The notes below the pieces were generated by a model. The model made no database searches. It was not told the DNA's origin and worked only from the letters and a program-made list of their open reading frames with translations. Source: Minisyncoccota bacterium (GTDB lineage Bacteria > Patescibacteriota > Minisyncoccia > Phycocordibacterales > JBAZVT01). From it: a stretch of 64,000 nucleotides of DNA. Both the position numbers and the translations under genes were made by a program. This document shows, one piece after another, positions 37,499 to 40,400 of the stretch. Numbering within the stretch: position 1 is the stretch's first letter; each line of letters begins with the position of its first letter. The stretch covers positions 1,880-65,879 of the forward strand of contig JBAZVT010000003.1 in the NCBI GenBank assembly GCA_041660745.1, in the 5' to 3' direction.

Positions 37499-40400
37499 TC
37501 TCAAATTTCCTAATAGAAATGGACTAATTAGTACACCTCGGCTCAACACATTACTGTGCGTACACCTAGTGCCTATCACCTGGTCATCTCCCAGGGGTCT
37601 CATAACGATTTCTAATCTTGGAGTTGGCTTCCCTCTTAGATGCTTTCAGAGGTTATCCATTCCCGACATAGCTACTCTGCGGTGCCCTTGGCAGGACAGC
37701 AGATACACCAGAGGTCAGTTCAACTCGGTCCTCTCGTACTAGAGTCAAATCTCCTCAAAAATCAACGCCTGCAGTAGATAGGAGACCAACCTGTCTCACG
37801 CTTGATATCACTTATTACTAAGTGCAATGGACTATAGCTTCATTCGCACAGTGCAAATGGTTGATGTTTAGTCTCTACGGGCTCCGTAAATTACGAATTC
37901 CCTCGATATTAGCCGTGCACGAAGTGCCTTTGGCTTCCACCGATATAAATCAACTTTGTTTCTATTTCTCCGAAGAAAAATAGAGACCGCCGTGATGTGA
38001 TTGGTTTCTTTTCTTTTATATTATTACAGTTAAGTAATAATTTTCTAAACGAAATGTTTTATAACAGTATTCCTTTGAGCGTCTATTCTCATAGACTAAC
38101 CCATAATATATTTCTTGAAATGTCCTCGCGGATTCAGAACGTCTTGCAGACAAAGCATGCGCTTAATCTTCAAAACGGTCTGAACCCAGCTCGCGTAACT
38201 TTTTAATTGGCGAACAGCCAAACCCTTGGGACCTTCTCCAGCCCCAGGATAAGTTGAGCCGACATCGAGGTGCCGAACTCCGCCGTCGATATGGACTCTT
38301 AGGCGGAACTAGCCTGTTATCCCTAGAGTAGCTTTTATCCGATAATCTCCCACCGCATCTAATGCGAATGGTCGGTTCACTTGGTTCTGCTTTCGCACCT
38401 GTTTGACATGTACGTCTCACAGTCAAGCTGGCTTATGCCCATACACTATCGGCACGGTTTCCATTCGCGCCTAGCCAACCTTAATAAACTCCTCCGTTAC
38501 TTTTTAGGAGGATAGCGCCCCACCAAAACTGCCCGCCAGGTACTGTCTCTATTCGTTTTTGCCGAATAGGTTAGAAAATATCTCTTCACAGAACGGTGTT
38601 TCATCGACGAGTCCATCTGAGCCGAAACCCAAACTTCAACCTCTACCGTCTACGCTACGCAGTAAAAAAATATTCTCAATACCAAGTTACAGTAAAGCTT
38701 CTAGGGTCTTTTCGTCTAACTGCAGGTAACCGGCATCTTCACCGGTATTGTATTTTCACCGAGCGGGTCCTCGAGACAGTTCTCCAATCATTACACTATT
38801 CAACGCGTCGGAACTTACCCGACAAGGAATTGCGCTACCTTAGGACCGTTATAGTTACGGCCGACATTCACCAGGGCTTACAACAGTCAGCTTGATATAA
38901 TCGCACCGCCGTTGTTTGACCTTCTGGCATTGGTCAAGTGTCACCCCCTATACATCCTCTTGCGAGTTCGCAGGGAGCTGTGTTTTTGTTAAACAGTTGT
39001 CAGAGATACTTTAGCTGCGGCCTGTATTGCTACAGGCAAGCCTTATTCCGAAGTTACGGCTGCTTTTTTGCAAAGTTCCTTGAGGACTTCTCACTCGTTC
39101 GTCTTGGTCTACTCGACCTGATCACCTGTGTCGGTTTGCGGTACGGATTCTATATAGTTATGCTTAGAAGTTTTTCTTGAAAGTTTGCTTTGCTGTATCT
39201 GTCTTGGCGAACCAAGACATTTCCACTCCACTTGAGGACGTAATTAAATACAGACTCCCGGATTTACCTGGGAATCACTCTTATGGCATGAACATAAATC
39301 CAATAATATGCACAGCATACTAAACTCTGTCACTCCATCGCACTATATAGAAGTCATGGAATATTAACCATGTGTCCATCGGCTGCGGCTCTCGCCATTG
39401 CCTTAGGCCCGACTAACCCTTGGCTGATTGACATCGCCAAGGAAACCTTGATCTTTCGACGTGCAGGACTCTCACCTGCATTGCGGTTACTTGTGCCAAC
39501 ATTCTTACTTCCACACGCTCCAGCATGGGTCACCCCTTTGCCTTCAACGCAGAGTGGAATACTCTCCTACCACTATATCCATCCGAAGATGGATCTAATC
39601 CTCAGTTTCGGTATTACGTTTAAACCCCGATTATCTGCGGCGCAAGATCTCTTACTGAGTGAGCTGTTACGCTTTCTTTAAATGATGGCTGCTTCTAAGC
39701 CAACATCCTCAGTGTCTGAGAAATCTTACCACCTTAAGCGTACTTAACGTAAATTTAGGGACCTTAAATAGAGATCCGGGCTGTTTCCCTTTTGACCAAT
39801 GGAGCTTAGCCCCCACAGTCTAACTGCTGAATAATTGACCTTTGGTATTCGGAGTTTGATAGGTCTTGCGATATTTCTACCTGTCAAGACCTTCCAGTGC
39901 TCTACCCCCAAAGGGTACATTCAACGCTAGCCCAAAAGCTATTTCGGAGAGAACCAGCTATTACCAGGCTCGATTAGCTTTTCACTTCTATCCACAAATC
40001 TTCCGAGAGTTTTGCACGGCTCACCGGTTCGGGCCTCCCTCTTGATTTCTCAAGAGTTCACCCTGTTCATAGATAGCTCGCTCTGGCTTCGGGTCTGATG
40101 TATACCACATACGCACTATTCATACTCGGTTTCCCTATGACTCCGTCCTCGCGGACTTAGCCGAGCGGTATGCATCAACTCGTTGGCTCATTCTTCAATA
40201 GGCACGCCATGACGGTCCGCACACTATGTACGATACTTGTGTTTAAAAACACAAAATCGCGCACACTGTGCGGACCGCGCTGACTCCTTGTAGGCATATG
40301 GTTTCAGGTCTATTTCACCGCCCTTAACGGGCTGCTTTTCACCTTTCCCTCACGGTACTAGTTCACTATCGGTATCTGAGAATATTTAGCCTTGCCGGTT

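Follow-up and report, generated by a model that had tools for sequence, protein, structure and literature searches.

The single 23S ribosomal RNA (rRNA) gene of a Minisyncoccota bacterium, which lies on the minus strand of a 64,000-nt stretch of contig JBAZVT010000003.1 (hereafter the window), is split by 374 nt inside the peptidyl-transferase loop. This insert is very probably a group I self-splicing intron without an open reading frame (ORF), placed after U2593 (Escherichia coli numbering), and it belongs to a family of introns at the same large subunit (LSU) site, L2593, in the Patescibacteria or candidate phyla radiation (CPR). We infer that it is spliced in vivo. The intron is real but ordinary, as such introns at site 2593 are already known to be common in CPR. 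The gene, the insert and the exon ends that flank it are the following:

37507 to 40906, minus strand: 23S rRNA gene hosting the intron, a full-length match to RF02541 (LSU_rRNA_bacteria), model positions 1-2925, 2371 bits
37801 to 38174, minus strand: group I intron without ORF, 374 nt
38175 to 38187, minus strand: last 13 nt of the 5' exon, GGGUUCAGACCGU (E. coli G2581-U2593), in which U38175 is the 5' splice-site U
37796 to 37800, minus strand: first 5 nt of the 3' exon, CGUGA (E. coli C2594-A2598), the partner of P10

The original prediction had proposed a 374-nt insert splitting conserved 23S sequence on the minus strand, and this is borne out. In the Rfam LSU alignment the window 23S carries a single insertion at this point, counted there as 376 nt, and in the DNA 374 nt (38174..37801) separate GGGUUCAGACCGU from CGUGAGACAG. 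Read on the minus strand, the exon runs as ...GCUGGGUUCAGACCGU up to 38175, is followed by the intron, which begins with UUUG and ends with AUCAAG, and continues with CGUGAGACAGGUUGG from 37800. The boundary is fixed, because any shift would destroy conserved exon sequence. E. coli numbering was taken from the position of the exact exon string together with BLAST segments. The string CGTGAGACAG starts at 2593 in the annotated 2903-nt E. coli 23S; in the standard numbering, based on 2904 nt, its first nucleotide is C2594, in line with the positions of A2602 and psi2604/2605. C2594 is thus the first nucleotide of the 3' exon, and therefore the insert follows U2593, as had been predicted. The 5' exon ends in U (U38175) and the insert in G (G37801, the omega-G), again as anticipated. 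Since the window 23S exons are 83-86% identical to 23S genes of Patescibacteria/CPR metagenome-assembled genomes (MAGs), compared with about 64-73% to E. coli, the host is taken to be a Patescibacteria bacterium, and its rRNA is, judged by sequence, of the Patescibacteria type. Moreover, the exon flanks are identical to those of the Patescibacteria L2593 relatives described below. Besides the intron, two further segments of the 23S gene are extra in comparison to E. coli: about 90-114 nt at ~40527-40639 in place of E. coli 271-292, and about 51 nt at ~40261 near E. coli ~555. Both are probably expansion or intervening sequences, of which CPR 23S genes are reported to have several kinds.

A sensitive Rfam scan of 37700-38300 (601 nt) matched RF00028 (Intron_gpI) at 38045..37808 over the full length of the model (positions 1-253) with 45.1 bits and an E value of 2.9e-10. 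The two sequences that had been likened to the R and S elements of group I introns, GUAGAGACUAAAC and GAAGCUAUAGUCC, align to the corresponding RF00028 consensus with high posterior probability. P1, P10, all helices from P2 to P9.0 and the omega-G can be drawn in the window intron, and these include P1 and P7, the two pairings on which the group I assignment had been made to depend. The elements of the core, in the direction of the intron, are:

37985 to 37995, minus strand: internal guide UCACG/GCGGUC, the contiguous complement of the ligated exons GACCGU/CGUGA
37961 to 37984, minus strand: P2 hairpin, 10 bp with a UUCG loop
37949 to 37954, minus strand: P3 5' strand GUUGAU, partner 37860-37865
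37879 to 37943, minus strand: P4-P5-P6 domain, in which P6 is a short hairpin where relatives hold an endonuclease ORF
37869 to 37875, minus strand: P7 5' strand GAGACUA (R element), with A37874 bulged and G37873 in the predicted guanosine-binding pair
37860 to 37865, minus strand: P3 3' strand AUCAAC
37841 to 37859, minus strand: P8 hairpin
37829 to 37834, minus strand: P7 3' strand UAGUCC (S element), with C37830 as the partner of G37873
37802 to 37827, minus strand: P9.0 (UUG/CAA) around P9, a 6-bp hairpin with a GUAA loop
37801, minus strand: omega-G, the final intron nucleotide and a nearly invariant G in the family

Within the guide, UCACG (37995-37991) pairs with the 3' exon CGUGA (37800-37796) to give P10, and GCGGUC (37990-37985) pairs with GACCGU (38180-38175), including a G37990·U38175 wobble, to give P1.

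This hand-drawn structure was put to a covariation test, in which its pairs were counted in an alignment of 74 non-redundant cores reaching from the guide to the omega-G (alignment A1), and in controls in which the 3' partners were slid by 1-3 columns. Standard pairs occupied 88.5% of the cells in A1, compared with 36-43% in the slid controls, and the covariation score was 0.397 against at most 0.124; none of 500 shuffles attained any of these values. Compensatory changes were found in P3, P4, P5, P6, P8, P9.0 and P9. P3 covaries at all six pairs with 90% of its cells paired, P4, P5 and P6 are paired in 97.9%, 98.2% and 100% of the cells, each with compensatory changes, and P8 shows such changes at seven of seven pairs. 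P9.0 is 98% paired, occurring as UUG/CAA, AUG/CAU or AUC/GAU, and P9 is paired in 96.8%. P7, which comprises the R and S elements and the bulged A, is invariant in all 74. P2 was paired in 45-62% of the cells of A1, where this length-variable helix was misaligned by MAFFT, and the evidence for its hairpin is per-sequence folding. L9 is a GNRA loop in 70 of the 74 and L2 in about 50 (about two thirds), the window having UUCG in L2 instead. Loss of the GNRA loop in L2 and loss of the UCC/GGA motif in P8 showed no association among these introns (counts 30/20/11/13). Since the window copy deviates at only two of the 57 columns that are conserved to at least 90%, and both deviations keep the pair (a G·U in P4 and a U-A in P8), it looks intact and functional.

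The relatives come from a motif scan of one genome per GTDB species with the pattern AGACTA..TATAGTC..GCGTGAGACAG, which listed at least 120 loci, nearly all of them in Patescibacteria/CPR MAGs; the counts given below for 109 (or 106, 108) relatives were made within these loci. Among the matches listed are Parcubacteria/Paceibacteria, Nomura-, Moran-, Adler- and Kaiserbacteria, and many labelled Saccharibacteria. In 108 of the at least 120 loci listed, the 5' exon CTGGGTTYARACCGT stands upstream as it does in the window, and the introns measure 213-745 nt. The window's own genome, with the exact intron sequence, is not among the 120 species-representative loci listed. In blastn the window intron matches related introns with E values down to 5.7e-22, and the ribozyme sequences can be aligned across the family from guide to omega-G. 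Metagenomes are also rich in the same junction without an intron, with identical 33-nt flanks (at least 120 matches). The nearest intron-less 23S genes are 82-85.5% identical to that of the window and the nearest intron-containing ones 83-86%, and thus the distribution is patchy, as would be expected of a mobile element that is gained and lost. The comparison of related 23S genes called for in the original prediction has therefore given an intron that is present or absent at one and the same site. Two of the related loci are unusual in other respects. One (L059) is labelled Bdellovibrionales and yet has a CPR-type L2593 intron and exon flank, and its contig may be mis-binned; the 23S gene of another (L029) has a second RF00028-positive intron elsewhere in the gene (L029:5915-6122).

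Part of the family encodes homing endonucleases. Relatives of 668-745 nt encode single-LAGLIDADG proteins of about 148 aa, the reading frame opening about 100 nt past the guide, in the P6 region. One of these proteins matches I-CreI (E value 1.5e-20), I-MsoI and I-CvuI in the PDB. The suggestion that the site is shared with introns of the I-CreI type therefore proved right, as introns at this very site encode homologues of I-CreI, I-MsoI and I-CvuI with E values of ~1e-20. The window copy lacks such a gene, which had likewise been noted: ORFs overlapping the insert have at most 45 aa in the sense and 69 aa in the antisense direction, and none is of endonuclease size. Furthermore, a tblastn search of the whole window with four LAGLIDADG proteins of related introns gave chance matches only (E >= 0.43) and no endonuclease remnant.

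The intron has an unusual, long 5' domain between the splice site and the guide, which consists of:

38143 to 38174, minus strand: hairpin of intron nt 1-32, right after the 5' splice site, from minimum free energy folds
38130 to 38142, minus strand: proximal exon-binding strand ACGUUCUGAAUCC, intron nt 33-45
37997 to 38129, minus strand: rest of the 5' accessory domain, intron nt 46-178
within this domain: the motifs GAGGACAU, ACUGUU (38063-38068), UUUCGUUUAG (38045-38054) and CCAAUC (37999-38004), which recur in relatives

The exon end GGGUUCAGACCGU can pair with two intron strands, over its full length with the proximal strand and with its last 5-6 nt also with the distal guide, which in the window sits 181 nt from the 5' splice site (29-276 nt across the family). 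The core of the distal element, ACGGCGG, is exact in 99 of the 109 relatives and present with at most one mismatch in all 109, always directly 5' of P2, and the P10 strand contiguous with it reads CACG in 96 of 109. The P1 that it forms is small: four pairs are universal (U·G, G-C, C-G, C-G), and a fifth (A-U) is present in 65 of 109. Exon position -6 does not covary with the guide, and the exon is invariant across the core pairs of P1.

The proximal strand ACGUUCUGAAUCC pairs with exon -1 to -13; at the splice site the pair is A-U, and position -4 is mismatched (U x C). The usual form of this strand in the family is AACAGUCUGAAUCC. Relatives hold an equivalent hairpin of variable length after the splice site. 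The complementarity of the proximal strand to the exon averages 11.5 of 13 positions, compared with 9.4 for shuffled exons, and reaches at least 12 in 63 of 106 introns compared with 9 of 2120 shuffles. The helix also covaries with the exon, at -6 (G:C 65, A:U 34, G:U 9, G:G 1) as well as at -8 (C:G 98, U:A 4, U:G 2). The splice-site U is paired with A in this helix in 87 of 109 introns and in the window. Of the 109 introns, 72 share a conserved C x A mismatch at -3, in place of which the window has the U x C at -4.

Two complements to one exon raise the question which of them is the catalytic P1. It could be the long proximal hairpin, formed by exon -13 to -1 with 38130-38142, and the conserved ACGGCGG would then have another role. 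Such a helix would have the classical topology of P1, with the splice site within the 5' strand of a hairpin, it is very stable and covaries with the exon, and in 15 of the 109 relatives it even offers a U·G at -1. However, in the great majority of relatives as in the window it pairs the splice-site U with A, and group I introns are hardly known to lack a U·G wobble at this position. Moreover, no P10 can be drawn for the proximal strand, as its 5' neighbours are paired in the intron's own hairpin, and the conserved C x A at -3 loosens the proximal helix at the very place where the guide has to prevail. The distal element has both the U·G and an adjoining P10, recurs in all 109 relatives, and lies right next to P2, where an internal guide is expected. 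We therefore consider a proximal P1 unlikely and take the distal guide as catalytic P1/P10, because it alone offers both the U·G wobble and a P10.

With the distal guide as P1, the proximal strand would act as a clamp for exon -13 to -6 that is able to compete for -5 to -1. Extended to the whole CPR L2593 family, this gives a tentative picture that we regard as possible, though with less than even confidence: a split guide, composed of a minimal P1/P10 (P1 of 4-6 bp and P10 of 4-5 bp) lying 29-276 nt downstream, a separate clamp strand of 8-13 bp, and a conformational switch concealing the splice site. We found no description of such a split exon-binding arrangement for natural group I introns in the literature. 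The guide may also reach further into the 3' exon. CCAAUC precedes the guide by 4-5 nt and complements 3' exon +10 to +15 (GGUUGG, 37786-37791). The complement is complete (6/6) in 51 of 109 introns (47%), compared with 10.7% for permuted hexamers, the exon being invariant there; this pairing may be an extension of P10. Further conserved motifs of the 5' domain are GAGG..GACAU, ACUGUU and UUUUCGYUUA..AGAUAG; for the UUUUCGUYUA module, RNAalifold on a MAFFT alignment gave no consensus pairs. Intron nt ~46-106 had no blastn match among the 120 related loci listed. The idea that 38130-38151 repeats the entire homing site in inverted orientation, and would so complement either exon, was rejected: in relatives the 5' half of this strand pairs with the intron's own start, and only the complement to the 5' exon is conserved.

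Several observations weigh against a working intron. The RF00028 score of 45.1 bits is below the Rfam gathering score of 50, so that of the Rfam check that had been proposed the match itself stood, whereas the threshold was missed by 5 bits. The distance of 181 nt between splice site and guide is atypical. The exon together with intron nt 1-50 folds into an interrupted hairpin of 29 bp (-32.9 kcal/mol, z -5.95), and this favoured local fold, with its U-A pair, buries the splice site in the prediction and could slow or prevent the formation of P1. The L2 tertiary contact may be missing in the window copy, whose L2 is not a GNRA loop. In addition, one bacterial 23S group I intron, that of Simkania, is reportedly unspliced, according to a title cited by Tsurumaki et al. 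(2024; PMC11270868). From these points, the guide distance excepted, one could argue that the intron is dead or protein-dependent and is either retained in the mature 23S or removed without ligation, leaving a fragmented rRNA, in which case the long exon-intron stem spanning the 5' boundary would be a substrate of the RNase III type. For the low score there is another explanation: among 16 homologous introns at the same site that were tested only seven reach the gathering score (50-60 bits), and therefore a score below it is a property of the family and not a sign of decay. All invariant core nucleotides, the omega-G, the guide and P10 are intact in the window, selection on the pairings is visible throughout the family, and a 374-nt insert or a break inside the peptidyl-transferase loop would hardly be tolerated. 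An RNase III intervening sequence is a simple stem-loop in helix 9, 25 or 45 without a ribozyme core; the window insert has a complete group I core and sits in the peptidyl-transferase loop of domain V. The known sequences of this type occupy other helices, and the CPR survey (Tsurumaki et al., 2024; PMC11270868) likewise assigns them to different sites. A dead or protein-dependent intron is thus very unlikely. That a CPR-type intron or the whole rRNA operon was misjoined into an unrelated contig is hardly credible, even if rRNA genes are often misassembled or mis-binned in metagenomes (Nakagawa et al., 2026; PMC13011429) and one related locus (L059) has a non-CPR label, since the exon sequence runs on without a break on either side and resembles that of CPR over the whole 23S, the gene lies inside a 64-kb window of uniform composition, and the intron boundaries are exact to the nucleotide.

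For a self-splicing intron with a distal guide, the following course of events can be proposed. The intron would be transcribed inside the pre-23S rRNA, where its strand 38142-38130 would pair with exon -13 to -6 and so clamp the 5' exon beside a very short P1. The same strand could also pair with -5 to -1, with a U-A at the splice site, perhaps in competition with P1 until the core has folded. The guide UCACG/GCGGUC (37995-37985) would pair with the last 5-6 nt of the 5' exon as P1, with U2593 in the U·G wobble. The G37873-C37830 pair of P7 would bind a free guanosine, which would attack the splice site. Subsequently the omega-G (37801), placed by P9.0, would occupy the guanosine site while P10 (CGUGA:UCACG) holds the 3' exon, and ligation of the exons would restore the peptidyl-transferase loop. 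Without an endonuclease, the intron would now be inherited vertically, or be mobile only with the help of related endonucleases.

Group I introns are frequent in these bacteria. According to the survey by Tsurumaki et al. (2024; PMC11270868), 82% of CPR 23S genes have insertions, 45% of these insertions are group I introns by Rfam, and 222 of the group I introns in these genes lack an ORF; position 2593 is among the recurrent LAGLIDADG_1 sites, and ORF-containing and ORF-less forms are scattered over the CPR phylogeny. The CPR 2593 introns of that survey share the phylum-level host, the insertion site and the ribozyme family with the window intron; as far as it was consulted, the survey gives no description of the ribozyme architecture or of split exon binding. 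Compared with other CPR L2593 introns, the window copy differs in its long 5' domain of 181 nt, which is partly unique, and in the UUCG of its L2. Nakagawa et al. (2026; PMC13011429) found group I introns in ~40% of Patescibacteria genomes and showed that tRNA group I introns of Patescibacteria self-splice in vitro. Outside the CPR, the Chlamydomonas chloroplast intron Cr.LSU, which encodes I-CreI, and cyanobacterial L2593 introns occupy the same site as the window intron (Haugen et al., 2007; PMC1995217). Introns of this type share their endonuclease family with the ORF-containing CPR relatives, whereas the window copy has no ORF. The cyanobacterial L2593 introns have a P7.1/P7.2 extension of ~65 nt (Haugen et al., 2007; PMC1995217), which is absent here: neither the window intron nor any of the 74 CPR introns has extra sequence between P7 and P3'/P8. 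The ribozyme scaffold may therefore not be shared between CPR and cyanobacterial L2593 introns, which were compared by published description only.

In its core, the window intron is similar to compact bacterial group I ribozymes, for which the pre-tRNA introns of Azoarcus and Anabaena are examples. Like these it has a small core, ~190 nt from guide to omega-G, with a simple P5, no P5abc and no P7.1/7.2, and most CPR L2593 members also have GNRA loops in L2 and L9. Unlike these its host gene encodes an rRNA and not a tRNA, and it has a large 5' accessory domain and a distant guide. In the pre-rRNA of Tetrahymena, the 5' exon alternates between P(-1) and P1. The exon nucleotides at the window splice site likewise have two mutually exclusive partners of which one is catalytically competent; in contrast to Tetrahymena, the competing strand is intronic, covaries with the exon and could coexist with P1 while holding -13 to -6.

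A 5S rRNA gene was found by Rfam at 37359..37251, and neither a 16S rRNA gene nor a tRNA gene was found in the 64 kb by Rfam and ARAGORN. The 23S and 5S genes thus form an isolated pair, and the rRNA genes are unlinked. The exact protein of a neighbouring VWA gene was matched in a 2.8-kb Logan contig. At ~27000-28000 the GC skew changes its sign and the cumulative skew peaks, gene orientation switches nearby, and an ORF of an rve/HTH-type transposase (26480-27529, minus strand) adjoins the switch; this region could be a replication terminus or a rearrangement point. Two large ORFs encode predicted surface-type proteins, one of 1263 aa with a lamin-tail domain and a right-handed beta-helix (45784-49575, minus strand) and one of 916 aa with DUF11 (15340-18090, plus strand).

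The intron is one more example of a documented pattern, namely that Patescibacteria can live with self-splicing introns where the ribosome is most conserved. A consequence for annotation is that the 23S gene is 374 nt longer than the mature rRNA, and that RF00028 at its default threshold misses the window intron as well as about half of the relatives tested. A covarying exon-clamp helix and a distant minimal guide are seen in more than 100 homologous introns, and this split exon-binding architecture may be the one aspect that is worth follow-up by specialists. If confirmed, it would illustrate how a ribozyme of very small size can keep hold of its exons and control when it splices within a folding rRNA, and it might inform the design of trans-splicing ribozymes with extended guide sequences. 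A switch that hides the splice site until the core is made could, if it exists, couple splicing to transcription or ribosome assembly in these bacteria.

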